Shown: positions 3,781 through 58,077 of the stretch, in pieces
Layout: the number at the start of each line of letters is the position of its first letter
Numbering within the stretch: the first letter of the stretch is position 1
DNA from: Bdellovibrionota bacterium
GTDB taxonomy: Bacteria > Bdellovibrionota_C > UBA2361 > CALJRW01
Length of the DNA stretch: 64,000 nt
Assembly (NCBI GenBank): GCA_041740355.1
Contig: JBGSMD010000009.1
Span: 1-64,000 of the forward strand
Direction: 5' to 3'
The notes under the pieces: model-generated
The model's database searches: none
What the model was told of the DNA's origin: nothing
What the model saw: only the letters and a program-made list of their open reading frames with translations
Made by a program: the position numbers and the translations under genes

Positions 3781-3835
3781 TAAACTTGGATATCCGCCTT
3801 AGCCAAAGCTTTAGCGTCATAAGAATCCAAAATTT
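3781..3835 (+). repeat. REP-like element inside the AAACTTGGAT…ATCCAA(A/G)ATTT hairpin
   Basis: TATCCGCCTTAGCCAAAGCTTTAGCG with the same flanks as the copies at 62014-62067 and 41152-41195 (reverse). Confidence 0.55.
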
Positions 3836-4103
3836 AAACGGTCTTGAGCCCTCAAAGATAATTACCTAGAGGAAAATTAGTTTTTGGCCCCTCTATAGTC
3901 TTAATGTCTCAAGACTGCTAAAGTAAAATAACAAATTATAATAAAATATCACTTAGCTTATTTTATTAGGATGAAAGATGAAAAACTTCATTTTTCGTTC
4001 CTAGCAAAGTGTAGTTTTCTTGTGCGATTTCCCCCTTTTCTTTAATTTCAAAATATTGCATAAGATCACATGAACAATACAAAACTTTATAATAAATAAT
4101 TTT

Positions 4104-4505: not shown

Positions 4506-4518
4506 TCCAATTACTTAA

Positions 4519-4551
4519 AACAGTTAAGCAGAGGGCCTCTGCTTAACTGTT
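4519..4551. terminator. Perfect palindrome between convergent genes (terminator-like)
   Basis: AACAGTTAAGCAGAGG-G-CCTCTGCTTAACTGTT. Confidence 0.7.
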
Positions 4552-4563
4552 CCACTAAGACTA

Positions 4564-5784
4564 TTACTCTCCAATCAAACGGTATTCACCAAACGTTTCA
4601 AAATTTATATTATTTAAAAAACTAACAATATCTTTTGTTTGGACGGCATTTACTTTAGCAATTGTCTCGTGAATTGTTTCTGTCTTTCCATGATACAAAA
4701 AATTTTCAGACAGATTAATCATCCGATTATAAGGCATTTCCGCCGATATCGCTAAGCGACTTGCAAGTTTCGTTTTTGATCTTTCTAATTCCTGCTCTGA
4801 GAAATTTAATTTGGCGGTTAAATAAGATTTAACTTTTTTAGTAACCTCTTCTAAATTCTTTGGATCGCAAGAAGCATAAACCAAAATTGATCCTGCTTGG
4901 TCATTTGCATCAACCCAGAGGTAACAGGATTCAACTGTTCCCGGTTCCAGCAGATCCCAATATATCTTAGATCCAGTTTGATCCCCAATAATATTAGCCC
5001 AAAGATTTGCCGGATAATAATTAGCATCTTGTGCAGAAGGACCAGGCAAAACTAATAACAAATGAGTCATGTTTAACTTATCGCGCTTAAAGTCTTTCTG
5101 AACTGAAGAAAATTTTAACTCTGGGTAAACTCTAGCTGTTTCCCGAAGTTTCCAATTAGCAGTTAACTGTTCTGCTTCGATACAAATCTTTTCCCAATCA
5201 AAATTACCCGCGACACTAAGAACCATATTTTTAGTTTGGTAACGTCGTTCCCAATAATCGCGCATCTGCTGAACAGTGATTGCTGAAACTGATTCCACTG
5301 ACCCAAGTACGGAATTACCTAATGGGTGACTTGCAAAATAATCGGCAACCGTTTCCATATAGAAAAAAGAACTAGGGTCGTCATTCTTTCGAGCAATCTC
5401 CTCTAGGATTACCTTTTTCTCCATATCAAATTCATCAGAATCTAATTTTGGTTGTAACATATCTAAAAGCAATTCTAGATAACCGGATTGGAATTCGGGC
5501 AAAATAGTCGCGTAATAGGTTGTATGCTCAACCGAGGTATAAGCATTCGCTTGCGCCCCCAGCTCTCCTAAACAATCATTAACTTCCTTAGCCGAACGCT
5601 TAAAAGTTCCTTTAAACATCATATGTTCTAAAAAATGCGAAATACCACTTTCTGCTACAGTCTCATCCCTAGAACCAGTATTGACCATAACCCCGATCGA
5701 ACAGGAATTTGCCGAAGATAAATATTCACCAACAATCTGCAAACCATTTGCTAACTTATGCGACAACAAAGAATTATTACTCAT
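4564..5784 (-). CDS. M16B zinc peptidase, catalytic subunit
   Basis: GSRDE…GISHFLEHMMFKGT (HXXEH), NAYTS, EKKVILEE. Confidence 0.93.
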   Translation of the reverse strand: MSNNSLLSHKLANGLQIVGEYLSSANSCSIGVMVNTGSRDETVAESGISHFLEHMMFKGTFKRSAKEVNDCLGELGAQANAYTSVEHTTYYATILPEFQSGYLELLLDMLQPKLDSDEFDMEKKVILEEIARKNDDPSSFFYMETVADYFASHPLGNSVLGSVESVSAITVQQMRDYWERRYQTKNMVLSVAGNFDWEKICIEAEQLTANWKLRETARVYPELKFSSVQKDFKRDKLNMTHLLLVLPGPSAQDANYYPANLWANIIGDQTGSKIYWDLLEPGTVESCYLWVDANDQAGSILVYASCDPKNLEEVTKKVKSYLTAKLNFSEQELERSKTKLASRLAISAEMPYNRMINLSENFLYHGKTETIHETIAKVNAVQTKDIVSFLNNINFETFGEYRLIGE

Positions 5785-5806
5785 ACTATTAATTATTTAA
5801 AATCTA

Positions 5807-7033
5807 TTACTGAATCTTAACTTTTCCTAATGTTAGGATTGATGGATTCTGAAATGGTGATCTAGCCAAATATTGGTTCAGATGATTAATGCCGATCTCA
5901 CTAATGTTTGTTTTAATTTCATCAAGGCTCCTAACACGCCCAAAATTCTCATAGTCATTGGCATAGCTAATGGCTTTTGACAAAGAAGATTCTCTTGAAA
6001 TTACTAATGATGAAAGAATATCTGTTTTAACACGTTTTAGTTCTTCTTCTGTAATTGTATTTAGTAGACTTACTAACACTTCTTGAATTACATCCAACGT
6101 TGCTCGAGCCCTTTCGGTCGTAGTGCCAGAATAGCAGATTAGTCGACCATACTTTGGGTGTGCCGTGTAGCTGGAATAGACACTGTAACAAAGCCCCCTT
6201 TTTTCTCTGACTTCTAAAAATAATCGTCCAAACATTCCACCAGATAACAAACCGTTTACAAGTCTCATTGGATAATAATCAGGAGAACTAATAGCTGGCG
6301 CGGGATAAGCTAATAAGATTTGAGTTTGGGCCGAGTCGAAATCTAAATGATCTTGAAATTGGGCCGGGAAATCATTCCAAGGAATTTCATCTTCTGGTGT
6401 TGTCGTTCCTTTACACTTCAAAAATGGAGCTACAGCATTTTCAATTTCCGTAAAATCTAGATTGGCAACAATAGAAAGAATTGCACCGGAAACATGATAC
6501 TGATCTTGATATACTTGCTCAAGATCGGTAACAGTCGTTGCTGTGATCCCAGCGAGTTCACCCATTAAAGATCGATTATAAGGACTTGGAAAATATCTTT
6601 GATTAAATTCACGGCCCACTAGTTTGGAAGGTTCATCTTGTACACTAAGAATTTCTTGAAGTAGTAATTCTTTAACTTTTGGTAATCCCTCTTCTCCGAT
6701 AACTGGTTCAGAAAAAAGTAGATAAAGTAACCTGAGCGCCTCCGCTAATTTAGATGACAAGCAACTACCTTGGAATTGAAATCGCTCTAACTTGGCACTC
6801 TCGCCATGGGAAATTCCATTACCATCGAAAAGATCGGATAACTCCTGAGGAGAATACTGAGCCGCTTGTCGACCTGTTAACTCACTGAGAATTAAACTTG
6901 CTCCAACTCGTGATTCTGAATCAGCGACGACCCCACTGCCAAAATTTAAATTATAAGCAGCAGAGCTAATGTCTTTTACTTGTTGATAAATCAACGTAAG
7001 TCCATTAGGGTATGTTTTAATATTAATTTGCAT
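5807..7033 (-). CDS. M16B peptidase, non-catalytic partner subunit
   Basis: M16 fold with GGMFGRLFLEVREKRGLCY but no HXXEH; adjacent to the catalytic subunit. Confidence 0.88.
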   Translation of the reverse strand: MQINIKTYPNGLTLIYQQVKDISSAAYNLNFGSGVVADSESRVGASLILSELTGRQAAQYSPQELSDLFDGNGISHGESAKLERFQFQGSCLSSKLAEALRLLYLLFSEPVIGEEGLPKVKELLLQEILSVQDEPSKLVGREFNQRYFPSPYNRSLMGELAGITATTVTDLEQVYQDQYHVSGAILSIVANLDFTEIENAVAPFLKCKGTTTPEDEIPWNDFPAQFQDHLDFDSAQTQILLAYPAPAISSPDYYPMRLVNGLLSGGMFGRLFLEVREKRGLCYSVYSSYTAHPKYGRLICYSGTTTERARATLDVIQEVLVSLLNTITEEELKRVKTDILSSLVISRESSLSKAISYANDYENFGRVRSLDEIKTNISEIGINHLNQYLARSPFQNPSILTLGKVKIQ

Positions 7034-43972: not shown

Positions 43973-45181
43973 CTAGGGATTAAGCTCTCTTAGGTTCGTT
44001 TTCCCATTACATAAAACAGGCCAGTCTAGAACTTCACGAAACTCAGGTTGCAAATAAACTGCCAAGTTAGCCTTAGACCATTCTTCTAGCTCTTGGACGT
44101 TAGCTACACCTTGGTAAAAACAAATAACTCGTTCCCCAAAGCTATCATCAGAAAATTTGAGGCAAGTCAGATGCTGAAATTCAAATTCCTGGCTAATTTT
44201 GCGTTCCAAAAATCCTAATTCAAATTTAAAACCACCGCGATTTACAAATGTTTTTTTTCGGCTAATTGATTTGATTTGAGAATCTGAAATTAACTCCACA
44301 AAGTCATTTGTCGGTATTGTAATTTTATGATCATGCTCTAAGCGCTCAATAATTAATTGCCCAGAATTTTGAAGTGACACATCCTCCTGCTTTTCAATCT
44401 TAAAAGTATATTCAGGTAAACCTTGATAAAAATCTTCGAAAATGTTTTTACAAGCAACTGTTCCGCCAGCCTCGGTTAGGGCATAGGTTAAAACGACTGG
44501 TAGGTTATAGTCTTGGATAATTTTTTCAGAAACTGGGTCTAGTGGCTCACCACCAAGAAAGATAATTTGTGCTGCTTCTAACTTCTGAATCAAATCAAGA
44601 TTACTCTTGTGCCAAAGCCTTAACTGAGTTGGAAATAAAGAGACTACCGTATCTTCAAAACTAAGGGCCTCTTCTAATTCAAACTCAATACTCCCCTGTG
44701 ACTGCCAAGCTCGAAGCAGAAGATTTAAGCCGGCAATTGAAGCAAAGGAAATTGATAGGATGAAATTTGCATTTCCTAATTCAAAGTGATCAACAAATAA
44801 CTTAGCCCGTAAAAACAGATCTTTAAGATTAAATGTCCAAAGCTTTAAATTCTCAGTACCAGAGCTTAAAATTGAAACTCTTGCTTTAAATTCAGGTTGT
44901 GTTTCTTGATCAACATGACGTGGTAGAAAGATTTTCTCAGGTTTAAGTGAGTCGATCCCTTCCAAATCAGATAAATTTGTTATTACTAAATCTAACCTTT
45001 GCTGTGAATTGATTTCGTAAATCTTAGTTACTAATTCCCGCGGATTTAAAAAAATTAAATTTAAATCTTTCTGACCTAAATATTGAATCAATTCAACATA
45101 GGTAAGTGAATTTTCCAGATGAAGTAAAATCGTTTTAACTGGATTGCTGACTAAATATGCTTCTAAATCAATTAGTTTCAA
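43973..45181 (-). CDS. menE: Divergent o-succinylbenzoate-CoA ligase (AMP-binding enzyme)
   Basis: SSGT, FLGGE, YALTEAGG, NRGG, FGER, NGK; directly downstream of menB. Confidence 0.65.
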   Translation of the reverse strand: MKLIDLEAYLVSNPVKTILLHLENSLTYVELIQYLGQKDLNLIFLNPRELVTKIYEINSQQRLDLVITNLSDLEGIDSLKPEKIFLPRHVDQETQPEFKARVSILSSGTENLKLWTFNLKDLFLRAKLFVDHFELGNANFILSISFASIAGLNLLLRAWQSQGSIEFELEEALSFEDTVVSLFPTQLRLWHKSNLDLIQKLEAAQIIFLGGEPLDPVSEKIIQDYNLPVVLTYALTEAGGTVACKNIFEDFYQGLPEYTFKIEKQEDVSLQNSGQLIIERLEHDHKITIPTNDFVELISDSQIKSISRKKTFVNRGGFKFELGFLERKISQEFEFQHLTCLKFSDDSFGERVICFYQGVANVQELEEWSKANLAVYLQPEFREVLDWPVLCNGKTNLRELNP

Positions 45182-45194
45182 CGTCTAAAAATGT

Positions 45195-46007
45195 TTAAAA
45201 TTTTGAGAAATCAGGGTTTCGTTTTTGCACGAAAGCATCTCGCCCTTCTTGTGCTTCGGCTGTTTGGTAAAACAACATTGTAGCATTCCCGGCAAGTTCC
45301 TGAATACCAGCTTGTCCATCAAGCTCAGCATTAAATGAAGACTTTAATAATCTTAGTGCAGTTGGGCTATGTTTCACAATATCCTTACACCAATCTAATA
45401 CTTCCTGTTCTAATTCAGCTAAAGGAACAACTTTATTCACTAAGCCCATTTCATAAGCTTCAGCAGCATTGTACTGCCGGCAAAGATACCAAATCTCTCG
45501 AGCTTTTTTCTGACCAACAATTCGAGCTAAGTAGCTTGCCCCAAATCCACCATCAAAAGAACCAACCTTAGGCCCCGTTTGACCAAAAATTGCATTATCC
45601 GCAGCAATGCTTAAATCACAAATCACATGCAAAACATGCCCACCACCAATCGCAAATCCAGCGATCATGGCAATGACTGGCTTTGGGATTGTCCGAATAA
45701 TTCTTTGAAGTTCCAAAACATTTAGAGTTTCTCCACCTTGTTCGGTTCTATATCCAGCATGCCCCCTAATTTTCTGATCTCCTCCTGCACAAAAAGCCAT
45801 ATCACCTGCTCCTGTTAAGATAATAGTTTTTACCGCAGGATTAGACCAACAAGCCATAAAAGCTTCTTGTAATTGGTTTACAGTTTCAGGACGAAAAGCA
45901 TTGCGTCGCTCAGGGCGATTAATTGTAATCTTGGCAACTCCTTGCGGCATTTCACCACCAGAAATTTCAAATAGAATATCCGAGTATTCTTTAACTGAGT
46001 TCCACAT
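45195..46007 (-). CDS. menB: 1,4-dihydroxy-2-naphthoyl-CoA synthase
   Basis: [49 protein letters not shown]. The ATG at 46007 is preferred over the TTG at 46019, which lies inside the repeat. Confidence 0.97.
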
Positions 46008-46015
46008 AAAATATT

Positions 46016-46320
46016 CCAAAAAATGTACGCGAAGCGTACTAATAAAAACTAATATTTTATCACGCCCCTGCCATTAACAACTTCTAGCAGCATGATAACT
46101 TCTAGCAGGGTGCGGATTGTTTGCATTAGCTTGCGCCTCTGCTCCAAAAAATATACGCGAAGCGTACTAATAAATACTGATATTTTATCACGCCCCTGCC
46201 ATTAACAACTTCTAGCAGCATGATAACTTCTAGCAGGGTGCGGATTGTTTGCATTAGCTTGCGCCTCTGCACCAAAAAATGTACGCGAAGCGTACATAAA
46301 AAACTGGCACTTTATCGCGC
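46016..46320. repeat. 128-bp tandem repeat (two full copies plus a partial third)
   Basis: Units start at 46016, 46144 and 46272 with CCAAAAAAT(G/A)TACGCGAAGCGTAC. Confidence 0.92.
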
Positions 46321-46323
46321 CAG

Positions 46324-46355
46324 CTTGTCCTCCGAAGCTTTAGCGAAGGTGGAAG
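46324..46355 (+). repeat. REP-like repeat
   Basis: CTTGTCCTCCGAAGCTTTAGCGAAGGTGGAAG. Confidence 0.75.
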
Positions 46356-46412
46356 TAAATATCAGCTAAGCTATAAATAATTGCAAGTGAAAGATCTTAA
46401 TGATTTAGAGTA

Positions 46413-49400
46413 CTATGGAAGGACTGTTAAAGTAATATTTGAAATAGCAGTAACTTGATCCGTTATTGAATCCTGACGAATCTCAGTTCTTCCAGTAATT
46501 TCTCCCCCAATTAAGCTAGGATTAGTTGAGTCAATAATATCATATTCAAATAATTGTGGAGTATCTAAAAACTGACCTTGATTCTCTTGGTTAAAATCTG
46601 CCAGACTAGGTTTTTGGCTTTGAAAAGTTACTAATGTGCTTTGATTAAGAACCTGATCAAAATCAATTCCGTCAAAACATTTATAGAATAGATCAAGTTC
46701 ATATTCACCATACTCCAGAACAGTTCCAAAAGGCACAAGCGTTCCAGCGCCACCCCATGCTCCGGTTAAATTAGTGCCACCCAATCCAGTATCATAAGTA
46801 ATTACTTGGTATATACCTGCACGATAAGTCCCAAGTGAGTCATCTAAAAGGTAACCACTAGCGGCGCTAATTTTTGCTCCAAAATCATCATCATAACTTA
46901 TATGTCTTAATAATACCTTCGGCACAGCATTCTCATAGATAAAAATCCCTTCGGGCTCGACAACTCCATCATTGGCAAAATCAAGTCCATACTGACTTAG
47001 AAAGAAATCGTAAGCCGCGTCTCGTTTTTGATCCTTTTGAGTTTGGTTGCGACCCAAATAATCATCAAAATCATCACCACTCGGTAATTGATAAGTTCCA
47101 GGAACAGATGGTGTAAAAGTAGATTCAAAACCAAATGAGTAATAATGAGTCATCCCATGAGGAGCTGGCCAATTAGGAAAGGAAACATTTGTAGAAATAT
47201 TAGAAGTATCACCCAAGTTATTAGGACTAGCTGGCACTGGCGAATTAACGCGATCGTTATTATTAGAATCACTAACTAATTCAGCGGAAATACTTACCAC
47301 AGTTAGATCCGCGGTATCTTGACCACTACAAGAAGTTCCAATCGTGTAAACACCGGAAATTTCATTACCATTAATATTATTTAAGACTACAACGGCACCG
47401 TTACTGAGTGTCACTGTTAGGGTTCCACCAGGAATAACTGCCTCATCATAAACAGCTCTAATTACAATCTGTGAACCTGTACCATAAGATCCATTCGGTG
47501 TCGTAGAATAAAAACTCGTTAACCTTGGAGGAGCATCATCAACACAGATATCTATGGAACGACTGTCAGCAAAACCACTTGCTACAACAGTTGTAATTCC
47601 TCCTACCCCACTTGCCAAAGCTCTTTGAATGACACCATTAGTGTGAACCCAAAAAAGATTATCAGTGTTTTTATTATAAACAATATCTCGCATCTGATCC
47701 CCAGGGGCGGTAAGAGTACGAAGGGTCACTAGATCTGTTCCATCAGTATCAATTTTACGAATCGTTTGCGAGTTGAAATCAACAAAAAAGAGACGATCTC
47801 CAGGAGGATCGATCGTTAAGTTGTAAGCTAAAGCTAAGCCAGTATTAGCAATAGTAGTTAAGGTAATCGGACTACAATTTCCATCAGTTGTAGTTCTAGC
47901 AAGACTTGCTGGAGCATTTAATCCGAAATAAACAAAAAGTCTTCCCGTATTTTTATCAATTTGCATTCCAGTTGGATAATTGAGTCCTGTAGCAATTGCT
48001 ACAGGTGTTCCTGTTCCATCTAAGTTGGCACAAAAAATATTAGCAGTATTTGCTGCCCAATCAGTCCAATAAATTTTGCCTTGGTTTTGATTAATCGTGA
48101 CCTGAAATGGTGGATTTGGAGAATAAAGAGCAGTATTAAAAAGTGTTATTTCTCCAGTTCCGTCAAAATTGGCTCTAGTGATTCTTAAGTTTCCATAAGA
48201 AGCCAAATAGCGATAATTGTTATCAGGATCGATAATCATTTCAAAGTTTTGAGTAAAGGCCGAGGTCGAAGTACTCTGATAAACTCCGGAAATATTATAA
48301 GTGTTAACATCACCACTAGCTAACTCAGTCGTAAATAATCTTTCTTGACCGTCACAAGCATTATTAGTCGGTTCATCATCGGTAATGTTAACAGTTACTT
48401 GTTGCACTCCATTTTCAGTTCCACCACCACTGACGGAGGTAATGTCAGTGATCACACTCTCCGATCCTTCACTAAAAGCATCATCTTGAGCAGTGATTGT
48501 TATGGATCCACTAAGAGAACTAGCAGGTATGGTGATTGAAGTTCCAGAACGAACATAATCTGTCAAATTATTAGCTGATCCACTAAAGCCCAAATTTACT
48601 ATAACTGGAGATGTCCAAATATTACTAAGAGTAGCAGTTAAAGTTGCGATTCCTCCATTTTCGATAATTGTAGCAGCATTCGTGGTTAAAGTTACCGTTG
48701 GTGGAGTTAAACTAACTAAGGTAACAAGTGTGAAATAATCGTCCCCGGTGAAATCAACGTTATTAAAAGTTACGATACCTCCAGAATAGGACGCAGCATT
48801 AATTTGTGTTGCACCTGCTGTAAAATCACTATTGGCTGAATCAACTAACAATCTAAAGTCAGCTGCTGTTGTTCCTGAAACTGGAATTCCATTTAAATTA
48901 AAAGAAATTGAGACCGTTCCCACATCACCAGTTTGATCGACTCTCCAAACTCGATCTGTTCGAGCAAATAGGCCTCCTGGTAAACCTGTATAGATCTCCT
49001 GAATTACACCATTATCATCATTATCATTGCCCCAAAGCAAGGATTCCGTATTCGCCATGGCTGACGCCGTAGACATAGTAACTATAGCATCGGTATTAAC
49101 TGATTTAGATTGCGTTTGATTTAGAGCTGAGTTGGTATCGACCATAATCCCAGCAATATCATTACGATAGGAATTATGGGTTCCTGTAGCATTATAAATA
49201 ACAGTGCCGGCACTGTTGGTATAATTTTGAGCAACTGTTTGGTTTAGTGTTACACCATATTTTACAGCCAAATAAGATTCGATCTTATTTCTATCAGCCG
49301 CAGAGTGAGCCGCGTTGTAATAGGCAATTTCTGCCATATCAACTACGGAATAATCGGTGTTAGCATTGCCTACCTGTACACCTTCATAATTTGTCCTTAA

Positions 49401-50081
49401 CTGGCGAGCTCCAATATTTGATGTTGCATTCACAGATTGAATTTGTCCAACTCCAGTAAGATTTCCATATTGAAAACTGTTTATGTAACAAGCAATCGTA
49501 CCTGCATTAGCCGCCGTGCCATTCATTATAAAACTAATTATGTATGTAGTATTGGGAACTGCAGGAGTATTTGCTCCCTTCCATGGCCATGTCGGAGCGG
49601 TATTAGTTTTAAAAGCTGAACAATAAAGGTTACCGTTAAATAAATATAAGTTAAAACCACTTTGATGATTTCGTTCTTTATAGATTAACTGGCGGGTAGG
49701 ACTAACTACACTACTCCCTGTTCGAAATGTATAGTAAACAGACTTGGTTAAACTATTAACTTGGTTAATGCTTGTATTGCTTGTAATTCCAAAAACATCA
49801 TTAACCCCATCAAAGCGAATGTAGGGGTTAAAGTTCATTGGTGTAAGATTCTTATAGAATGGACGATTAGCCAAAGTTGCTTGGGTTGCACTATTTGTCC
49901 CTCCAAGTGCAGTTGCTTGATCCGTCCAAGTCTGAACTCCAACCCCATCAGTGGTTGTGGAGGTGCCAGCATTCGCCTTTAACCAAAGGGGAAACGTAGC
50001 CGTTACATTCCCTGGCGCTTGAGCTTCCAAGATGTTAGTGAGTAATAACAGAAAAATTATAAAAAACGACTTCTGAGACAT
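46413..50081 (-). CDS. Large secreted multidomain surface protein (LamG-like, Calx-beta-like, YWTD beta-propeller, unnamed C-terminal domain)
   Basis: Signal peptide; LWLKAN…WTDQ…AEIAYYN…IESYLAVKYGVTL; TIIENGG…DDAFSEGSE…ITDD; KIYWTD…ANLDGT repeats. Confidence 0.8.
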   Translation of the reverse strand: MSQKSFFIIFLLLLTNILEAQAPGNVTATFPLWLKANAGTSTTTDGVGVQTWTDQATALGGTNSATQATLANRPFYKNLTPMNFNPYIRFDGVNDVFGITSNTSINQVNSLTKSVYYTFRTGSSVVSPTRQLIYKERNHQSGFNLYLFNGNLYCSAFKTNTAPTWPWKGANTPAVPNTTYIISFIMNGTAANAGTIACYINSFQYGNLTGVGQIQSVNATSNIGARQLRTNYEGVQVGNANTDYSVVDMAEIAYYNAAHSAADRNKIESYLAVKYGVTLNQTVAQNYTNSAGTVIYNATGTHNSYRNDIAGIMVDTNSALNQTQSKSVNTDAIVTMSTASAMANTESLLWGNDNDDNGVIQEIYTGLPGGLFARTDRVWRVDQTGDVGTVSISFNLNGIPVSGTTAADFRLLVDSANSDFTAGATQINAASYSGGIVTFNNVDFTGDDYFTLVTLVSLTPPTVTLTTNAATIIENGGIATLTATLSNIWTSPVIVNLGFSGSANNLTDYVRSGTSITIPASSLSGSITITAQDDAFSEGSESVITDITSVSGGGTENGVQQVTVNITDDEPTNNACDGQERLFTTELASGDVNTYNISGVYQSTSTSAFTQNFEMIIDPDNNYRYLASYGNLRITRANFDGTGEITLFNTALYSPNPPFQVTINQNQGKIYWTDWAANTANIFCANLDGTGTPVAIATGLNYPTGMQIDKNTGRLFVYFGLNAPASLARTTTDGNCSPITLTTIANTGLALAYNLTIDPPGDRLFFVDFNSQTIRKIDTDGTDLVTLRTLTAPGDQMRDIVYNKNTDNLFWVHTNGVIQRALASGVGGITTVVASGFADSRSIDICVDDAPPRLTSFYSTTPNGSYGTGSQIVIRAVYDEAVIPGGTLTVTLSNGAVVVLNNINGNEISGVYTIGTSCSGQDTADLTVVSISAELVSDSNNNDRVNSPVPASPNNLGDTSNISTNVSFPNWPAPHGMTHYYSFGFESTFTPSVPGTYQLPSGDDFDDYLGRNQTQKDQKRDAAYDFFLSQYGLDFANDGVVEPEGIFIYENAVPKVLLRHISYDDDFGAKISAASGYLLDDSLGTYRAGIYQVITYDTGLGGTNLTGAWGGAGTLVPFGTVLEYGEYELDLFYKCFDGIDFDQVLNQSTLVTFQSQKPSLADFNQENQGQFLDTPQLFEYDIIDSTNPSLIGGEITGRTEIRQDSITDQVTAISNITLTVLP

Positions 50082-50199
50082 TATACAGTAATGACTTTCG
50101 ACTTAATTAAAGCAATACTTTAGATTATACACTGTAATCTTAGGTTCTAACAATAAATATTATTTAATAAACTAAATTAGTAAGCTATAATCAATTCAA

Positions 50200-50985
50200 G
50201 TGAACATTACCCTTAAATACATCTTTCCATTACTCCTAGTCTTAAATCTTAGCCTTCTAGCTGAAGATCAGCGAATTGCTACGATCAGTAAAAACAAATC
50301 CTATTTTTGCAAAGAAAACACTAACTCAATTTTGCTTAAGAGCTACACGCCAACTGGACAAGAAAAGAATGTTCAAGAATTAACCAATAAAAAAGCCTTA
50401 ACGCTTCGAAAAAATCTAGTTAAGCAAATTAAAAGCTTAAAGAAAGAATTAAAATCAGAAACTAACAAAAAGAAACTTAAAAAACTTGAACAACAAATAG
50501 CGATTAAACAACTAGTAAGAGATGGTATTAAAAATTGCTTAGAAGCAACGCTAACGTTTGCTTCTGATATCAACTTATCCACAGACCCTCTTCCTGTAGA
50601 CTTGATTTTACCTCCAACATACAACGAAACAAATACTATCACAGGAGCATTTAGTGGAAGCTGTGAGCTAAAAGGTAAACATATCCCAGCCTATCAAGCT
50701 GGCTCAGATCAAGCACTTTTTGCCCCACAAAGTGGTCAGTTGTTTTGTAATTTTACGACTACAGACACTGATTATCAAAGCTTGCTTCTAAAAGTTTTTA
50801 GGCAAGGAAGTCCAAGCGAAATCCTCTTTACAAAAACTATTAATAGAGCAGATATTAAAGAAGACTTAAGTTTTACAGTAGCCCTCTGTCCAGAATTTCC
50901 AGGTTGTTTTAACGCTAACATTATTGCAAAAGCAATATCCGAAGATGGCATTGATATCTCTTTAGAAAAGTACCCAACAGAATAA
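50200..50985 (+). CDS. Secreted hypothetical protein with a Lys-rich coiled segment
   Basis: Signal peptide, six Cys; ends 8 bp before the PqqD gene; GTG start. Confidence 0.7.
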   Translation: MNITLKYIFPLLLVLNLSLLAEDQRIATISKNKSYFCKENTNSILLKSYTPTGQEKNVQELTNKKALTLRKNLVKQIKSLKKELKSETNKKKLKKLEQQIAIKQLVRDGIKNCLEATLTFASDINLSTDPLPVDLILPPTYNETNTITGAFSGSCELKGKHIPAYQAGSDQALFAPQSGQLFCNFTTTDTDYQSLLLKVFRQGSPSEILFTKTINRADIKEDLSFTVALCPEFPGCFNANIIAKAISEDGIDISLEKYPTE

Positions 50986-50993
50986 ATCACCCG

Positions 50994-51290
50994 ATGACTG
51001 ATATTATTAATTTTCGAGATCAAGTGATCCCTGTTTCCGATGTTCTTTTAAAACAGGTAGAAGATTCCTGTGTTTTACTTAATCTAAAAAACAATAATTA
51101 CTATGGTCTAGACCCTGTTGGGCATCACTGTTATTCTAGACTGATAGAAGCCGATTCAATTCAGGATGCTTTTGAAAGACTAACCAATGAATATCAAGTT
51201 GAGGCCCAAGAGCTAAAAGAAGATTTAATTATATTAATCGAAAGCCTAATTAAAGCTGAAGTAGTCTACTTAAAGCCTAAAGAACGTTAA
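50994..51290 (+). CDS. Stand-alone PqqD-family RiPP recognition element (lasso B1-like)
   Basis: VLLKQVEDSCVLLNLKNNNYYGLDPVG…LTNEYQVE…LKEDL…L, a typical RRE pattern. Confidence 0.9.
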   Translation: MTDIINFRDQVIPVSDVLLKQVEDSCVLLNLKNNNYYGLDPVGHHCYSRLIEADSIQDAFERLTNEYQVEAQELKEDLIILIESLIKAEVVYLKPKER

Positions 51291-51300
51291 GAATAAGTAC

Positions 51301-51329
51301 TTCTCAATATTTGAGCTTTAGTGTATAAT
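51301..51329 (+). promoter_or_regulatory. Putative sigma70 promoter for the precursor (possibly leaderless mRNA)
   Basis: TTCTCA-17 bp-TATAAT, 6 nt before the ATG at 51336; no Shine-Dalgarno. Confidence 0.45.
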
Positions 51330-51335
51330 AAATCC

Positions 51336-51476
51336 ATGGAAGATAAGAAAACCGACGAGTCAAAAAAAGAAAAAAAGACTTATCAAAAACCAAAATTGAT
51401 TAAATATGGTTCGCTCAAAGAACTAACTAAATTTGGTGGCTCAATGGCTGCTGACTTTTTTGGTATGCAAACTTAG
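51336..51476 (+). CDS. Lasso-type RiPP precursor peptide, 46 aa (MEDKKTDESKKEKKTYQKPKLIKYGSLKELTK-FGGSMAADFFGMQT)
   Basis: Hand-translated (below the ORF-track cut-off). Leader motif YxxPxLxxxGxxxxxT; Asp at core position 8; 45 bp downstream of the RRE gene. Confidence 0.88.
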   Translation: MEDKKTDESKKEKKTYQKPKLIKYGSLKELTKFGGSMAADFFGMQT

Positions 51477-51668
51477 TTCTAGCTCTATAAGTTCCTATTT
51501 GTATAACTCAAAATCCCTTCTGACATAAATTCAGGAATAATTAGTTCGATTCAAAATGCGATAATTAGATCAAGCAAATTAATCTTGTTTCTATATTGTG
51601 GTTGTATCTACAATCAATTAAATTTTCAGTATATTTGCCCTTTGGTCAGGTGTCTTTGGACTGTAATA

Positions 51669-51811
51669 ATAGACAGTCCAAAAAATAATTTACGTAAGTA
51701 ATTTTTTGGGGTCTATCTATCCCCCAGAGGGATGATAAAATCATATAATTATTACAAAAAGCAGGTAAATTGATTTTATTTATACGTAATTTATTTTTTG
51801 GAATAACTATA
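51669..51811 (-). mobile_element. ~145-bp MITE-like element, copy 3 (inverted)
   Basis: Reverse complement reads TATAGTTATTCCAAAAAA…TATGATTTTATCATCCCTCTGGGGGATAG…CCCCAAAAAA…TTTTTGGACTGTCTAT. Confidence 0.7.
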
Positions 51812-51816
51812 AATCA

Positions 51817-52791
51817 ATGAATCAATATACTCCTCAAAATTTCGCTCAAATGCTAGCCGATCCTGTAAGGGTTCCAGCTTTTATTAATGCCCTCAAAGAA
51901 TTAATCACACCGGATACAGTTGTTTTAGACTTAGGTGCAGGAACTGGCGGGTTTACTCTACTCGCTTGTAGCCTTGGAGCAAAGAAAGTCATAGCAGTTG
52001 AGCCAAACGAAGCAATATTAATTGCGAAAGAACTTATCAAAGAGAATCGATTTGAAGATCGAGTGGAGTTCTATCAAGAGAAAATAGAAAATCTAAATTT
52101 ATTGCCAGTTGATCTGATAATCGCCGACCTAAGAGGCAAACTTCCTTTTTATCAACAGAATCTTCCGATTATGCAATTAGCCAAAAGTAAATTTTTAAAA
52201 GCGACTGGTGCGCTACTGCCTTCTAAGGACAAAATCTATTTAGCACTTTGCTCAGATGCCGATCTTTACCAAAAAAAGATTCACCCACTAGCCAAACAAT
52301 CGATTAAATTTTCAACAAAATCTTACGAAAAATATTTAACAAATTCTTTTTATCCAACAAACTTTAAAGCTAAGCAATTAGCCAGCAAGGCGGAAATCTG
52401 GTGTTCCCTAGATTACAACCAGATTAAAGATTATTCTTACAGTGCTTCCGTTACTTTCTCAACTCTCAAGCAAAAACTGTTTGGCTTTTATGCCTGGTTT
52501 GATTGTGAATTAACACCGAATGTCAGCTATTCTTGTGGAGCAGACTCAGAGGCGCTAGTCTATGGAAGTGTCTTTTTTCCGTTTGAACAAGAAATTGAAT
52601 TAAAAGATAATCAAGTTCTGGAAATTGAGCTATCAGCTAGATATATTGATGAGGATTATATCTGGAGGTGGAAAACTTACCTAGTCGATCTAGCAAGCAA
52701 TTCCAAGAAGATATTATTCGATCAATCAACTTTTTATGGTGTAATATTTTCTAAGAATTTATTAGATCAAAAAATTTCCCCAGAAATTTAA
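51817..52791 (+). CDS. Class I SAM methyltransferase with PRMT-like architecture (putative RiPP tailoring enzyme)
   Basis: MLADPVR, VVLDLGAGTG, VIAVE, VDLIIADLRG, FLKATGALLP, GFYAWFD. Confidence 0.85.
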   Translation: MNQYTPQNFAQMLADPVRVPAFINALKELITPDTVVLDLGAGTGGFTLLACSLGAKKVIAVEPNEAILIAKELIKENRFEDRVEFYQEKIENLNLLPVDLIIADLRGKLPFYQQNLPIMQLAKSKFLKATGALLPSKDKIYLALCSDADLYQKKIHPLAKQSIKFSTKSYEKYLTNSFYPTNFKAKQLASKAEIWCSLDYNQIKDYSYSASVTFSTLKQKLFGFYAWFDCELTPNVSYSCGADSEALVYGSVFFPFEQEIELKDNQVLEIELSARYIDEDYIWRWKTYLVDLASNSKKILFDQSTFYGVIFSKNLLDQKISPEI

Positions 52792-52815
52792 CTTTCTAAT
52801 AATAGAACATCACCC

Positions 52816-55800
52816 TTGTCAGAACAAAAACATTTTCATCTTACACTTACAGGTCTCAAGGAGAACAATCTAAAGGACTTGGATATTACTCTGGAGCATG
52901 ATCAGTTAATCGCGGTAACTGGACTATCGGGATCTGGCAAATCAACTTTAGCTTTTGATACTGTTTACGCCGAAGGTCAACGAAGGTACTTAGAAACATT
53001 TTCTTCTTATGTTCGTCAATTCTTAGATAAAGTTAAAAAACCAGATCTGGAAAGTAGTGAAAATGTACGCCCAGCAATCGCCATTGAACAAAAGAATAAA
53101 ATTCACTCTAGTCGCTCCACCGTTGGAACACTTACTGACTTAAATGATTACTTAGGAATACTATTTGCTAATTTCGCACTACCCTACTCTCCAATTAGTA
53201 ATCAGCTGCTTAGAAAATATTCGCCCAACGAAGTTGCCGAAGCCGCTAGTAAAATAGAATTCAATGTTGATTACTTCTTTATCTGCGCACCTTGCCCATT
53301 AACCGCAACAAAAAAAGGTATAACTAAAAAACTAACTAAGAAGGACCTAGCAGAACAGGTAAATAATCTTCAATTAATGGGATATAATCGCTTTTTAATT
53401 CCTGGATCAGCTACTGTTTATAAATTAGCGGAAGATCTTTCGGAGCTAGCTACTCAGGAATTAATTTATATTTTAATTGATCGACTAAAACCTGCTCAAG
53501 CTAAGACTCACCGCTTAATTGAAGCTGTAGAGCAGGCCTACCAACTGGGCAAAGGTGTTGCTTATCTCGCTATCCCCGAAGCGGAGCTAATTCAATTTCA
53601 TCGATTTACATCTTTCTATTCGGATCCCTCACAAGATAACTTAGAACTCAAAATTCCACTGCCAAAACCCGGACTATTTTCTCCAAATAATCCATTAGGT
53701 GCTTGCCCTCACTGTAAGGGTTTTGGAGCAAATTTAATTGCCGATCCTAAAAGAATCATTCTTAACCCAGAATTATCGCTAACAGAGAACGCGGTCGATT
53801 GCTGGAAAGGTCCCGCCGTTCAAAATTTAAAAGAAAAGTTAATTAAGTTTGCAACTGAAAATAAAATTAAAGCTAATCTTCCTTGGAGTAAACTTACTAG
53901 CGAACAACAAGATTTGATATTTAACCATAGCGGTAAGAGTTACTTGGGGCTAAGTCCTTGGTTTAAAAAAATCGAGAAGAAATCTTATAAGGCTTACGTT
54001 CGAATTTACTTAACCAAGTATCGCTCTCCTGTTACTTGTGAAGAATGCCAAGGAAGTGGAAGCAAAGCTGATGCCCTACTTTTTCGTTTAAATAATAAAA
54101 ATATTTCAGAACTTAGGGAACTAGCAATTAGCGAACTAGCTGATTGGATAGCAGGATTAAAAACTCAAGTAACAAAATCTAAATCCTTAGAGCTTCAAAC
54201 TGTATTTGGGCAAAGTACTTCTCGGACCAAACAAATGTTAAATCTCGGCTTGGACTACTTAAGTTTAAGTCGCCCTGCCAAAACACTTTCTGGTGGTGAA
54301 ACTCAACGGGTTAATTTAGTTTCTGCCATTGGAAGCGAACTAGTTTCCACTCAATTTGTTTTAGATGAGCCTTCCGTTGGATTACACCCTAGAGACTCTG
54401 ATCGTTTAATGCAAGCAATTAAAGAATTAAAGAATCGCGGAAATAGTATTTTAATGGTGGAACATGATCCTGATTGTATCTTAGCAGCAGATCAAATCCT
54501 CCACCTTGGACCAAAAGCTGGTAGCCAGGGAGGAGAAGTTATTTACTATGGTACTCCTAATAATTGGAAACATAAATTTATTCCAGTTAGTCCTCAAAAA
54601 CTTAAACCACAATCAGCTAGCGAACTAATAGTTAAAGCTGATAATATCCGGAATTTAAAAAAAATAGATCTACGAATTCCTCTTTCATGTTTAGTGGTAC
54701 TATCCGGTGTTTCCGGAAGTGGCAAAAGTAGTCTAGCAAGAGAAGTAATTTTAAAAGCTTACCAAGAGAATTGTAGCCAAGATCCTTTTGGAAATTATTC
54801 TGTTTTAGGTTTAGAGCAGTTTGGTCAAGTACTAGCAGTCGATCAAAGCTCATTGGTGAAGAGTCCGCGTTCAAACATTGCAACTTATAGCAAACTTTGG
54901 GAGATAATTCGGGAGGAGTTAGCAGACGATCCGCTGGCAAAACAAAAACTTTTTACTAAATCAACTTTCTCGTTTAACGTGGAAGGTGGACGTTGTCCTC
55001 ATTGTAAGGGAGCTGGATACCTCAAAGAAGAAATGCAATTTCTAAGTGATGTATATGTTACGTGTGACCTGTGCTTGGGACAAAGATTTCAGGATTCAGT
55101 TCTAGATGTTACCTATTTAGACAAAAATGTAGCCGAATGGTTAAAAACAACGGTTCTGGAATGTCAGAGTTTATTAGTTAATAACTTAGAAGCATTTTCT
55201 ATCTGCCAAAACATCAACAAGCTTGGTCTGGGCCACTTAACTCTCGGTCATCCTTTAAGTCAGCTTTCAGGTGGTGAAGCACAACGTCTAAAACTGGTTC
55301 CCTTTATTCAAAGAGCTACTCGGGGTGATTCCTTACTAATCTTTGATGAGCCCTCAACTGGACTTAGCCAAGAAGATGTTAAGAACCTACTAATTGTTTT
55401 TCAAGAACTAATTTCAGCAGGTCACTCAATTCTCTGCATTGAACATAATCAAGATATTATTCTTGCAGCCGATCATGTAATCGACCTAGGACCCGAAGGT
55501 GGTAAAAATGGTGGCGAAGTGGTCTTACAAGGCACACCTACTGAATTTTTAAATAAAAAAAATCAATCAAAATCTCTGACTGCTAAATACCTACAAGCCT
55601 ATCTAGATCGTTACCAATCTGGAAAAATCAAATTTGAAAAAGAAAAAGAAGTTAAGCATGACTCTAGTAAGTTAAAAATCTTTGCTGCTAATGAACATAA
55701 CTTAAAGAATATCGACTTAGAAATCCCTCATAACGAAATTGTTGTTTTCACAGGAGTATCAGGATCTGGAAAATCAACCATCGCGAAGGATATTGTTTAC

Positions 55801-58077
55801 GCCGAAGGACAGCGAAAATACTTAGACTGTCTTTCTCCTTATGCTCGACAATTTATTAAAGAGTTAGCTAAACCTCAAATTGCTAGTATTGAAAACCTCC
55901 GACCAACAATTTGTGTCTATCAGCATACCTTCCAACCAAGTAAGCTTTCCACGCTTGGGACTGTTAGTGAAATTTATAACTTCCTTAGATTACTTTTTGC
56001 CAAAGTAGGCGTACCCTACTGTCCAGATCATCCCGAGCATGAACTAAGTAGTTCGAGCTTAGAACAGATTTTAAATAAGATTCTCCTATTTGGCGATCAG
56101 ACTGTTAAATTAATGGTTCCGGTAATTAAATCTAAAAAAGGGCATCATCGCCCAGTCTTTATTCAAGCTAGAAAATCAGAGATTGAGGAGGTTCGAGTCG
56201 ATGGTGTCTTTGGACCAGTGGGACGCTTTGAAGAAGGATTAAGTAGAAATCAGGTTCATAATATTGAATTTGTATATGCTAAGGTAGTTCCTAGTAGAAT
56301 TCCGCCTGATTTAATTATGGAAGCAATTCGTGACATTATCAGCCTTAGTGGAGGCAATATTATTGCTAACGTGGCAGGTTCCGATCAGATCTTAAGTACC
56401 CGCCGGGGTTGTCCCGAATGTGGTCGCGGATATTTAAAACCGGACCCTGAAGATTTTTCATTTAACTCTCAACGAGGACGATGCTCAAAATGTTCCGGCT
56501 CAGGTAAAACAATTACCGAGAAGATTTGTCCAAGTTGTAATGGAACAAGGATTAACAAGACCGCGTTAAATATCAAGATTAACCAAAAAAATATTTACCA
56601 ATTATCACAGTTAAATTCTGCTGAGTTAGCAAGTTTCCTAGATCAAGTTAAATTTCCTAAGCAACAGCTAGAAATTGCTAAAACAATTATTTCTGAAATT
56701 AAAATTAGAACTAATCGTTTGTTGCGTTTAGGTTTGGAATACTTACCACTCAGTAGAAGCTGTCAGGATTTATCTAAAGGTGAATTGCAACGCTTAAAAT
56801 TAGCTAACTCTATGGGCTCTCCACTAAATGGTGTTTTATATATCTTTGATGAACCAAGTGCTGGCCTCCACCCAAATGATAATCGAAAAATATTAAAAGA
56901 GTTCACCAACCTAAAGAATCAAGGCAATTCCGTCTATATAATTGAACACGACCAAGATACAATTGAGTTTGCTGATCACTTAATTGAATTAGGTCCAGGT
57001 GGCGGACGCGAAGGTGGTCAAATAATATATAATGGTAGTGTAAAAAACTATCAGCCCCATAAGATCTCCAAAATTGACTGGTCCACTAACCTAGATGAAC
57101 CTAAACATAATTTAAAAATTACTGCTGGGGCAATAAATAATATCAAGTCCCTAAGCTTAACCCTTCCACTCCAAAGATTAGTGACAATTTGTGGCGTTTC
57201 CGGATCAGGGAAAAGTACTCTACTAAACAATATTATTTTAAATTCAATTGATAATCTTAAAAACCTAGAATGGAAAAATAAACTATCCACTGTCACTTCG
57301 GATTTATTAATTGATCGATTGTTAGTTGTTGATCAATCCCCGATCGGAAAAAACTCTCGTTCCACTCCAGCTTCTTATTTAAAAATCTGGGATGAAATTA
57401 GAAAATTACTGGCGCAAATGCCACTGGCTAAGACTCGTGGCTGGGGACCAAGTTATTTTTCTTATAACTCCGCAACTGGGGGGCGTTGCCCTGAATGTAA
57501 TGGAACTGGCACTCAAAAATTAGAAATGAGTTTTTTAGCAGAAGCAAAAATTGAGTGCCCACTATGCCAAGGAAAAAGGTACACCGATGAAACACTAAGC
57601 ATTAAATACTTAGACAAAAATGCCTCAGAAATTTTCAACTTAACCTTTGAAGAAGCAAAGAATTTATTTACGAATTATCCTAAAATTTATCGCATTCTGA
57701 AAAGTGCTTGTGATTTAGGTCTAGGGTATTTAACCTTAGGTCAAACTTCCACTACTCTTTCCGGTGGCGAAGCTCAGCGTTTAAAATTAACGGAAGAATT
57801 AGCAGTTAATCCTCGGGGTCATACATTATATGTTTTTGATGAACCAAGTGTTGGTTTACACCAACAAGATGTTTTAAAACTGCTGAAAGTATTGAAAGAT
57901 TTAACTAACAGAGGCGACAGTGTGATCTTAATAGAACATGACCCCCTGATAATCAAGTATTCTGATCATTTAATAGAGATGGGTCCAGGTGCTGGAGATT
58001 TAGGTGGAGAGATTATTTATAACGGCCCTCTTTCACAAATAAAAAAATCTAAATCTCTTTGGAAAGAGTTGATTTAA
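52816..58077 (+). CDS. uvrA: Double-length excinuclease ABC subunit A
   Basis: Two tandem UvrA units: four Walker A motifs (GxSGSGKS), signatures LSGGE/LSGGE/LSKGE/LSGGE, YAEGQR twice, Zn fingers. Confidence 0.95.
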   Translation: MSEQKHFHLTLTGLKENNLKDLDITLEHDQLIAVTGLSGSGKSTLAFDTVYAEGQRRYLETFSSYVRQFLDKVKKPDLESSENVRPAIAIEQKNKIHSSRSTVGTLTDLNDYLGILFANFALPYSPISNQLLRKYSPNEVAEAASKIEFNVDYFFICAPCPLTATKKGITKKLTKKDLAEQVNNLQLMGYNRFLIPGSATVYKLAEDLSELATQELIYILIDRLKPAQAKTHRLIEAVEQAYQLGKGVAYLAIPEAELIQFHRFTSFYSDPSQDNLELKIPLPKPGLFSPNNPLGACPHCKGFGANLIADPKRIILNPELSLTENAVDCWKGPAVQNLKEKLIKFATENKIKANLPWSKLTSEQQDLIFNHSGKSYLGLSPWFKKIEKKSYKAYVRIYLTKYRSPVTCEECQGSGSKADALLFRLNNKNISELRELAISELADWIAGLKTQVTKSKSLELQTVFGQSTSRTKQMLNLGLDYLSLSRPAKTLSGGETQRVNLVSAIGSELVSTQFVLDEPSVGLHPRDSDRLMQAIKELKNRGNSILMVEHDPDCILAADQILHLGPKAGSQGGEVIYYGTPNNWKHKFIPVSPQKLKPQSASELIVKADNIRNLKKIDLRIPLSCLVVLSGVSGSGKSSLAREVILKAYQENCSQDPFGNYSVLGLEQFGQVLAVDQSSLVKSPRSNIATYSKLWEIIREELADDPLAKQKLFTKSTFSFNVEGGRCPHCKGAGYLKEEMQFLSDVYVTCDLCLGQRFQDSVLDVTYLDKNVAEWLKTTVLECQSLLVNNLEAFSICQNINKLGLGHLTLGHPLSQLSGGEAQRLKLVPFIQRATRGDSLLIFDEPSTGLSQEDVKNLLIVFQELISAGHSILCIEHNQDIILAADHVIDLGPEGGKNGGEVVLQGTPTEFLNKKNQSKSLTAKYLQAYLDRYQSGKIKFEKEKEVKHDSSKLKIFAANEHNLKNIDLEIPHNEIVVFTGVSGSGKSTIAKDIVYAEGQRKYLDCLSPYARQFIKELAKPQIASIENLRPTICVYQHTFQPSKLSTLGTVSEIYNFLRLLFAKVGVPYCPDHPEHELSSSSLEQILNKILLFGDQTVKLMVPVIKSKKGHHRPVFIQARKSEIEEVRVDGVFGPVGRFEEGLSRNQVHNIEFVYAKVVPSRIPPDLIMEAIRDIISLSGGNIIANVAGSDQILSTRRGCPECGRGYLKPDPEDFSFNSQRGRCSKCSGSGKTITEKICPSCNGTRINKTALNIKINQKNIYQLSQLNSAELASFLDQVKFPKQQLEIAKTIISEIKIRTNRLLRLGLEYLPLSRSCQDLSKGELQRLKLANSMGSPLNGVLYIFDEPSAGLHPNDNRKILKEFTNLKNQGNSVYIIEHDQDTIEFADHLIELGPGGGREGGQIIYNGSVKNYQPHKISKIDWSTNLDEPKHNLKITAGAINNIKSLSLTLPLQRLVTICGVSGSGKSTLLNNIILNSIDNLKNLEWKNKLSTVTSDLLIDRLLVVDQSPIGKNSRSTPASYLKIWDEIRKLLAQMPLAKTRGWGPSYFSYNSATGGRCPECNGTGTQKLEMSFLAEAKIECPLCQGKRYTDETLSIKYLDKNASEIFNLTFEEAKNLFTNYPKIYRILKSACDLGLGYLTLGQTSTTLSGGEAQRLKLTEELAVNPRGHTLYVFDEPSVGLHQQDVLKLLKVLKDLTNRGDSVILIEHDPLIIKYSDHLIEMGPGAGDLGGEIIYNGPLSQIKKSKSLWKELI

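Follow-up and report, generated by a model that had tools for sequence, protein, structure and literature searches.

The window studied here is the 64,000-nt stretch of contig C9 (JBGSMD010000009.1) from the genome of a Bdellovibrionota bacterium, which is assembled as 3.27 Mb in 74 contigs and is 97% complete. It probably carries the substrate-and-tailoring half of a lasso peptide pathway whose genes lie at two distant loci. Three genes of the window are concerned: one for a stand-alone recognition element (RRE) of peptides that are made by ribosomes and then modified after translation (RiPPs), which belongs to the PqqD family and is called B1' below, one for a 46-residue precursor, and one for an S-adenosylmethionine (SAM)-dependent methyltransferase (MTase) with the fold of protein arginine methyltransferases (PRMTs). 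The initial annotation of the window, whose placement of all three genes is confirmed, had left three readings side by side, namely a split lasso pathway with the B2 peptidase and the cyclase (C) encoded elsewhere, a decayed cluster, and a minimal, non-lasso RiPP in which an RRE guides methylation. The first is now favored by the finding that the sole B2 gene, a second RRE gene (B1), and the sole gene for a lasso-type Asn-synthase homologue in the genome are located together on contig C63.

A lasso precursor in the window and its probable partners on contig C63

The small reading frame that had been put forward as the precursor gene, 45 bp past the stop codon of the RRE gene and upstream of the MTase gene, is found at 51336-51476 and encodes exactly the 46 residues first quoted. 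Its leader (residues 1-32) satisfies the lasso motif YxxPxLxxxGxxxxxT as Y16-x2-P19-x-L21-x3-G25-x5-T31, with Thr at position -2. Taking cleavage after K32, the core FGGSMAADFFGMQT consists of 14 residues with Asp at position 8. In lasso peptides, the Thr at -2 serves cleavage by B2, and the ring is closed on an Asp or Glu at core position 7-9, which is the role that the core Asp would have. The precursor scored 25.5 bits on the NCBIfam model NF033521 (lasso_leader_L3; cut-off 19) and 31.5 bits on NF033528 (lasso_cyano), just under the cut-off of 33. It was the sole lasso leader over the cut-off in the whole genome, in agreement with a six-frame regular-expression scan, and none of 14 control genomes reached the cut-off. 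The copy in a congeneric genome (G001) is 91% identical in amino acids with a dN/dS of 0.06, keeps the Asp at core position 8, and is flanked by noncoding DNA that cannot be aligned; the core lacks Arg and Lys in both species. Because the leader model is passed, the match is unique in the genome and absent from the controls, and the frame is conserved in the congener, the small frame is more than a chance occurrence, and the claim of a lasso leader motif holds. Among 18 aligned precursors (16 from the relatives' MTase loci described below, plus those of the window and the congener), P19, Y24, G25, and T31 are invariant. All 18 match NF033528 at E ≤ 0.01, and 15 of them match NF033521.

Genome-wide searches with Transglut_core3 and Asn_synthase gave no match on C9 at E ≤ 1, which bears out the earlier statement that the 64 kb contain neither a cyclase nor a peptidase. 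The same searches, which the initial annotation had asked for, located the probable other half of the pathway on C63. Transglut_core3 had a single match over its cut-off of 26 (C63:155480-155773, minus strand; 35.6 bits), and this B2 protein reached 42.1 bits on the NCBIfam model lasso_biosyn_B2 (cut-off 33). Five Asn_synthase matches were obtained at E ≤ 1, and only one was over the cut-off of 21 (C63:156858-157793; 40.6 bits); the other four, on C64, C30, C16, and C67, did not exceed 16.7 bits. PqqD (cut-off 23.4) was found over its cut-off twice, in the window (42.8 bits) and at C63:156043-156237 (41 bits). The open reading frame (ORF) map of C63 shows a divergent arrangement, with B2 on one strand and the RRE and the Asn-synthase homologue on the other, and the start of C overlaps the stop of the RRE. 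As read from the translations, both species retain the SGGLDS PP-loop in the cyclase candidate and the Cys, His-Ala-Trp, and Asp motifs in B2. An ORF map, a six-frame expression scan, and a leader-model search revealed no lasso-leader ORF near the B2-B1-C genes of C63.

Profiles built from the C, B2, HprK-like kinase (K), and NTP_transf_5-type nucleotidyltransferase (N) proteins of relatives' clusters gave one genome match each, all on C63 within 155.4-169.0 kb. The genome holds the full gene set of the relatives at two loci, and the lasso genes do not form one contiguous cluster: the precursor, B1', and the MTase are on C9, and B2, B1, C, K, N, and an exporter are on C63. The closer end of C9 (153,059 bp) is 51 kb away from the precursor gene, and that of C63 (206,611 bp) is 49 kb away from the B2 and C genes. 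Because of these distances, the loci are at least ~100 kb apart even if the two contigs abut, and the split is not an assembly artifact. Between 150500 and 173200 of C63, the B2-B1-C, HprK-like, and NTP_transf_5 genes are interleaved with polysaccharide genes (a sugar transferase, GT1 and GT2 glycosyltransferases, a Wzy-like ligase, two acyltransferases, and an epimerase). As an observation on their own surroundings, some relatives' clusters also border polysaccharide genes: Wzz/tyrosine kinase in L030, NeuB and an epimerase in L038, and an epimerase and GT4 in L043.

The best NCBIfam matches of B1' are the lasso PqqD chaperone models, both under their cut-offs. It is 41% identical to the RRE of C63 and 51% identical to its congener orthologue. 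A small RRE tree unites the two B1' with the two B1 sequences at UFboot/SH-aLRT values of 91/92, which were not starred and came with a long-branch warning. A duplication of the RRE within the lineage, before the two species split, is likely from these sequences.

A search of 40 related genomes for the MTase retrieved an orthologue in the congener alone (66% identity); the next-best match was 25% identical (E 8e-15). The congener neighborhood matches that of the window gene for gene, with a 261-aa protein, a PqqD protein of 94 aa, a precursor of 46 aa, an MTase of 321 aa, and a 1753-aa UvrA-like protein. Its B2-B1-C genes are on a contig separate from that of the PqqD-precursor-MTase genes, again without a precursor. 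Synonymous sites between the two genomes are saturated for most genes, and all six lasso genes are intact. B2 and C have dN/dS values of 0.15 and 0.12, respectively. The precursor is conserved more strongly than any other gene around it, with unalignable DNA on both sides. Because a congener at saturated synonymous divergence keeps the same layout with intact genes, the two-locus split appears to be a maintained pathway and neither decay nor a cyclase-free RiPP. It would be quite improbable for the two loci to be nonfunctional remnants of one or two decayed lasso clusters, as one of the initial readings had it. Genes of the relatives' clusters are indeed absent from each locus (C and K from the window, the precursor from C63), a repeat element has entered the precursor-MTase spacer, and the cyclase is divergent. 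However, both loci are intact, with six open frames in two species at saturated dS, dN/dS ranges from 0.06 to 0.15 where measurable, the precursor is conserved above its neighbors, and neither the PP-loop nor the catalytic motifs of B2 nor SAM motif I has been lost. Across the order, B2 is distributed patchily, with a match over the cut-off in 10 of 91 genomes. In a genome of the same family and another genus (G002), the match is at a contig end, with no lasso neighbors seen in the ORF list.

The methyltransferase family in the lasso clusters of relatives

A one-genome-per-species scan provided 18 full-length MTase loci of relatives, with flanks of up to 8 kb on each side. They come from Acidobacteriota (Pyrinomonadaceae, Vicinamibacterales, and others), Trueperaceae, Chloroflexota, Gemmatimonadota, and two cyanobacteria. 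A lasso-leader ORF is present upstream of the MTase gene on the same strand in 15 of the 18, and most of these ORFs are preceded by a GGAG-type ribosome-binding site. The exceptions are L047, where the match is dubious, L037 (Chloroflexota), where there is none, and L046, where the sequence stops 1.4 kb upstream of the MTase gene. A uniform HMM tally, also checked with Pfam scans, counted the RRE (B1) and the cyclase in 16 loci each, the HprK-like kinase in 17, NTP_transf_5 in 12, the ABC exporter (D) in 11, and B2 in 8. The usual gene order is RRE-(B2)-cyclase-precursor-kinase-MTase-exporter-nucleotidyltransferase. Half of the 16 cyclase-bearing loci have no B2 within the flanks (L030-L034, L040, L043, and L044), including all six Pyrinomonadaceae loci, and separation of B2 from the cluster may be frequent in this family of clusters, beyond the genus of the window. 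In L044 (Gemmatimonadota), two tandem cyclase-like frames flank the precursor within 2773-6746 (E 8e-168 and 5e-171 against the cyclase profile).

The family is large. An exhaustive search among 1.84 billion representatives gave 483 clusters at E ≤ 1e-30, and a word-indexed search gave 32 relatives, the closest being 53% identical. A metagenome scan provided 12 MTase loci with 24-34% identity; the contig of the closest (53%) relative is not among these. In the three metagenome loci with enough upstream DNA, the cyclase gene is followed by the precursor gene and then by the MTase gene. The kinase gene is between the precursor and the MTase in L117 and L122, and a kinase homologue is upstream of the cyclase in L116.

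The presence of the same MTase family beside a lasso cyclase in 16 of 18 relatives' loci speaks against the initial suggestion of a minimal RRE-guided methylation RiPP outside the lasso class. It had also been reasoned that, if homologous loci always contain B2 and C, the window merely has a fragment of an ordinary lasso cluster. This holds as far as the cyclase is found in 16 of the 18 loci; the split, on the other hand, is conserved and apparently functional here, and the MTase cannot be counted among the ordinary, described enzymes of lasso pathways. The possibility that the MTase is a housekeeping protein methyltransferase that merely neighbors the precursor, with no part in its maturation, was also considered and appears the least probable of all. 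A 340-bp spacer with an inserted repeat parts the MTase gene from the precursor gene, the core offers neither Arg nor Lys to a PRMT-like enzyme, and one full-length relative (L037) has no lasso genes nearby. Against these points stand the lasso linkage in 16 of 18 loci across Acidobacteriota, Deinococcota, Gemmatimonadota, and Cyanobacteriota, the occurrence of an orthologue in the congener alone among the 40 related genomes, which is not a housekeeping distribution, and a co-fold model (see below) that passed its controls.

A PRMT scaffold and its predicted docking on the RRE-leader complex

In Pfam, the MTase matches class-I MTase domains and reaches 25.3 bits on PRMT_C, under the cut-off of 27. 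The PRMT fold claimed in the initial annotation is confirmed by structure prediction: the AF2 model (pLDDT 92.3, pTM 0.88) has PRMT1, PRMT8, CARM1, and PRMT2 as its top Foldseek matches, with TM scores of 0.80-0.85, E-values of 1e-25 to 1e-22, and 19-24% identity. The match extends over the whole length of the MTase (309-329 columns), and the two-domain fold of Rossmann domain and β-barrel is present. A family profile of 27 members matches PRMT8 at 3.5e-51. SAM motif I (VLDLGAGTG) is kept, but the arginine-binding residues of PRMTs are not. The double-E loop, SEWMG...YES in PRMT8, corresponds to an invariant Ser/Ala-Asp-Leu-Arg-Gly in the family, in which the first Glu is replaced by Asp (Asp104); the position of the second Glu is variable and is Gln113 in the window MTase. 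In the profile alignment of the THW loop, "iY" is opposite the "HW" of PRMT8, and there is no conserved His. Among 13 Pfam families matched at E ≤ 1, there was no small-molecule O-methyltransferase or PCMT family, which we take to be the families that house the StspM/LasF and TceM/LihM enzymes, respectively. Most family members have about 375-390 aa and a conserved C-terminal extension of ~60 residues (L035, L036, L038, L039, and L041-L046), which is absent from the window MTase (324 aa) and the Pyrinomonadaceae proteins. An RRE domain was considered for this extension, and hhalign against a PqqD alignment gave no support (probability 1.7%).

A co-fold of the MTase with B1' and the precursor, including SAM, scored 0.70, and the best of three controls scored 0.02; exchange of the RRE for an unrelated protein likewise gave 0.02. 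The mark of the tool is reached by 116 of 157 solved complexes and by 2 of 215 mismatched pairs, counts that apply only roughly here because our own alignments and a ligand were used, unlike in the calibration. The runs agree in at least 59% of the contacts, with a partner pLDDT of at least 89. In the predicted interface, the β-strand region of the RRE (residues 18-38) and leader residues 22 and 24-35 face MTase residues 273-284 and 304-319. The family-invariant residues Y281, W283, W285, Q303, and S304 are in this interface stretch, beyond the PRMT-aligned part. Confident contacts also include core residues 40 and 42 and MTase residues 8 and 108; residue 108 follows Arg106 of the altered double-E loop by two residues. 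We know of no solved complex of a PRMT and an RRE. The model supports, but does not prove, that the MTase docks on the RRE-leader complex and that the linear precursor is methylated under guidance of the leader through B1'.

The same model would also suit a self-sufficient triad, in which B1' and the MTase make a linear or non-lasso methylated peptide and the B2-B1-C set of C63 serves, for example, the polysaccharide locus. The triad has its own RRE, the modeled RRE-MTase-precursor complex would need no other partner, the B2-B1-C genes have glycosyltransferase, Wzy, acyltransferase, and sugar-epimerase genes around them, and the C63 cyclase is far under the NCBIfam lasso-cyclase cut-offs. We nevertheless consider this explanation unlikely. 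The MTase family accompanies a cyclase in 16 of 18 relatives' loci, the Thr at -2 is invariant and is kept together with the Asp at core position 8 in both species, the B2-B1-C set has no other lasso-leader substrate in the genome and yet is under purifying selection, and a leader peptidase that could replace B2 is not apparent at the window locus.

Judging from the loss of the arginine-binding residues and from a core without Arg or Lys, the enzyme is a PRMT scaffold that probably has an acceptor other than arginine. Asp, the C-terminal carboxylate, Ser/Thr hydroxyls, and the backbone are the sole groups that all linked cores have in common. Our first guess for the acceptor, itself a tentative one, is the C-terminal carboxylate, because a carboxylate would be a fitting partner for the invariant Arg in the substrate loop and because the methyl ester of lassomycin, as outlined in a review (PMC9266682), offers a precedent. 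The side-chain nitrogen of Gln45 is a weaker second guess, made because Gln45 replaces the Lys/Arg of the C-terminal [K/R]-[T/S] motif of the relatives; [K/R]-[T/S]-x(0-2) is the ending of most of their cores, and Gln-Thr takes this place in the window. We would guess another site on the peptide with the same reserve as Gln45, and a target other than the peptide is the most doubtful guess of the four.

Here, we propose a maturation route for the split lasso pathway. B1' would bind the leader motif (Y16...P19.L21...G25.....T31) and present the linear precursor to the MTase, which would dock by its family-specific C-terminal surface (273-284 and 304-319) and place one methyl group on the core. 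B1 and B2 from C63 would then cleave after K32, with Thr31 at position -2, and the cyclase would link the amine of Phe33 to the side chain of Asp40, forming an 8-residue ring in a 14-residue lasso peptide. The calculated monoisotopic masses are 1465.601 for the linear core, 1447.590 for the lasso form, and 1461.606 for the lasso form with one CH2 added ([M+2H]2+ 731.810). The kinase and nucleotidyltransferase homologues would possibly modify the C-terminal Thr46 further, and the peptide would be exported after maturation.

Clusters of the paeninodin and pseudomycoidin type, with split B1/B2, an HprK-like kinase, an NTP_transf_5-type nucleotidyltransferase, and an ABC exporter, have the same gene set as the MTase-bearing clusters of the relatives. 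The phosphorylated residue in peptides of the PsmK type is reportedly a C-terminal Ser; the core of the window ends in Thr, and its genome has one homologue of each of these genes. According to a review, PsmK is a kinase, and PsmN may append hexoses to the phosphorylated peptide (PMC9266682). Unlike these clusters, which are contiguous and have no PRMT-fold MTase, the precursor, the MTase, and the extra RRE are here separated from the rest by at least ~100 kb. The lassomycin-type C-terminal carboxyl O-methyltransferases LasF and StspM are, as summarized there, SAM-dependent enzymes of lasso pathways that act on the linear precursor before B1, B2, and C (PMC9266682), and a C-terminal methyl ester is the leading guess for the product here. 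StspM was modeled on mitomycin 7-O-methyltransferase (PMC9266682, in its account of this enzyme), whereas the window enzyme has the two-domain PRMT fold and no O-methyltransferase match in Pfam at E ≤ 1. TceM and LihM are PIMT-type, aspartimide-forming enzymes that, in the accounts given by two reviews, act on the threaded lasso only (PMC9266682, PMC13352647). The window enzyme resembles them as a candidate MTase tailoring a lasso peptide, and many linked cores have Asp-Gly; in contrast to them, it has no PCMT-family match, and the co-fold places it on the leader-bound linear precursor. The eukaryotic type I enzymes PRMT1, PRMT8, and CARM1 share with it the fold over the whole length and SAM motif I, but differ in that the double-E loop is altered, the THW His is absent, and the linked core has no Arg. 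Compared with the relatives' precursors, the core of the window is shorter (14 versus 16-23 residues) and has neither a Gly-rich stretch nor Lys/Arg before the C-terminal Thr/Ser.

In the consulted passages of the 2022 and 2026 reviews, the only lasso methylations named are C-terminal O-methylation by LasF/StspM and methylation of Asp to aspartimide by TceM/LihM (PMC9266682, PMC13352647). A literature search, which left most papers in subscription journals outside its reach, found no description of a PRMT-like MTase in a lasso cluster or of a lasso precursor away from the B and C genes. We class the locus as a lasso pathway in which the conserved two-locus layout, the duplicated RRE, and the candidate PRMT-fold tailoring enzyme, an uncharacterized one, are new. 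A more far-reaching joint reading can be offered, though with considerable reserve. The PRMT-fold enzyme would found a new class of RRE-dependent RiPP MTases, having lost the arginine-binding residues and gained a conserved C-terminal docking surface (the DYIWRW and QST motifs) for the PqqD-leader complex, and would install an undescribed lasso modification. In this genus, a strong requirement of the MTase for an RRE would have led to retention of a second RRE gene beside it and the precursor gene when the cluster was split, and the pathway would work in trans across two loci, with its other half inside an exopolysaccharide locus.

Several points weigh against a functional split lasso pathway. 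The C63 cyclase candidate is very divergent, with 57 bits on NF033535 (cut-off 525) and 18 bits on NF033561 (cut-off 300), and has no detectable GATase domain, whereas the relatives' cyclases reach 283-340 bits on the NCBIfam lasso cyclase model. Another role of the B2-B1-C genes inside the polysaccharide gene cluster is conceivable. The core is short, with its 14 residues, and begins with Phe; the usual first residue of a lasso core is Gly. In nearly all relatives, a kinase gene lies between the precursor gene and the MTase gene; the window lacks it, and the repeat inserted between these two genes may disconnect their transcription. Any assignment of the methyl acceptor is a guess, and the docking is only a model, obtained with our own alignments and a ligand, in contrast to the calibration. 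If the pathway is as proposed, cluster-based mining, which looks for a precursor beside the B and C genes, would miss it, and hence would miss real producers, and "orphan" B2-B1-C sets need not be dead. The MTase family, usually encoded after the kinase gene of the cluster, points to an undescribed lasso modification. Reuse of the PRMT scaffold with an RRE would, if true, be a clear example of leader-guided enzyme recruitment, and the predicted interface supplies residues to mutate.

Features of the two loci and neighboring genes

The features of the two loci are listed in the following table.

Features of the window locus (positions in the window) and of the C63 locus (positions in contig C63)
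Feature	Position	Strand	Basis
B1', stand-alone PqqD-family RRE, 98 aa	50994..51290	+	Pfam PqqD, 6.5e-11, 42.8 bits
Promoter-like site TTCTCA-17-TATAAT	51301..51329	+	Consensus scan
Lasso precursor A, 46 aa	51336..51476	+	NF033521; conservation in congener
Copy of ~145-bp interspersed repeat	51664..51814		blastn of 340-bp spacer against genome
PRMT-fold SAM-dependent MTase, 324 aa, candidate lasso tailoring enzyme	51817..52791	+	Pfam, AF2, Foldseek
HepA/MsbA-like ABC exporter	C63 150.5-152.3 kb		ORF map and family search
B2 peptidase, 134 aa	C63:155450-155855	-	Transglut_core3, lasso_biosyn_B2
Second RRE (B1), 94 aa	C63:155971-156255	+	Pfam PqqD
Lasso-type Asn-synthase homologue (C), 528 aa	C63:156252-157838	+	Pfam Asn_synthase
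HprK-like kinase homologue	C63 ~163.3-164.2 kb		Single match to relatives' kinase profile
NTP_transf_5 homologue	C63 ~168.0-169.0 kb		Single match to relatives' NTP_transf_5 profile

The -10 hexamer of the promoter-like site stops 6 nt before the precursor ATG, and the congener retains the TATAAT, 7 nt before its ATG, though the adjacent DNA has diverged. The consensus scan gave no excess of promoter-like sites in the region (14 versus 10.2 ± 3.1 in shuffles) or of terminator-like sites (2 versus 1.6), and only the cross-species conservation of TATAAT was used from it. The precursor mRNA might be leaderless or near-leaderless. The AT-rich repeat, with inverted ends, has 118 other blastn matches of at least 100 bp on 32 contigs, with a mean identity of 77%. 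Because 21 of these are at contig ends, the repeat probably breaks the assembly. The corresponding spacer in the congener is ~105 bp long and has no repeat.

An Rfam scan at E ≤ 1 gave no family at 50000-53000, and no tRNA was found at 45000-53000. No RNA run was among the public runs listed as containing 50900-52900, which are four DNA runs from one study, each with part of the stretch and two of them with at least half of the words. Their labels are hot springs or biofilm metagenome; because the best-matching run may itself derive from the source sample, the labels are not independent evidence of habitat.

A tandem repeat with a 128-bp unit (46015-46321; 2.4 copies, 92% matches) is located between a crotonase-like gene and the gene for a 1222-aa surface protein, with no tRNA there. 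The gene directly upstream of the RRE (50200-50985) encodes the 261-aa protein, which has a signal-peptide-like N terminus and no Pfam family. It is syntenic in the congener, where it is 72% identical, and may or may not be part of the locus. UvrA-like proteins can confer self-resistance in some natural-product clusters. The gene directly downstream of the MTase (52816-58077) encodes the 1753-aa protein of two UvrA-like halves, which is of equal length and 87% identical in the congener.

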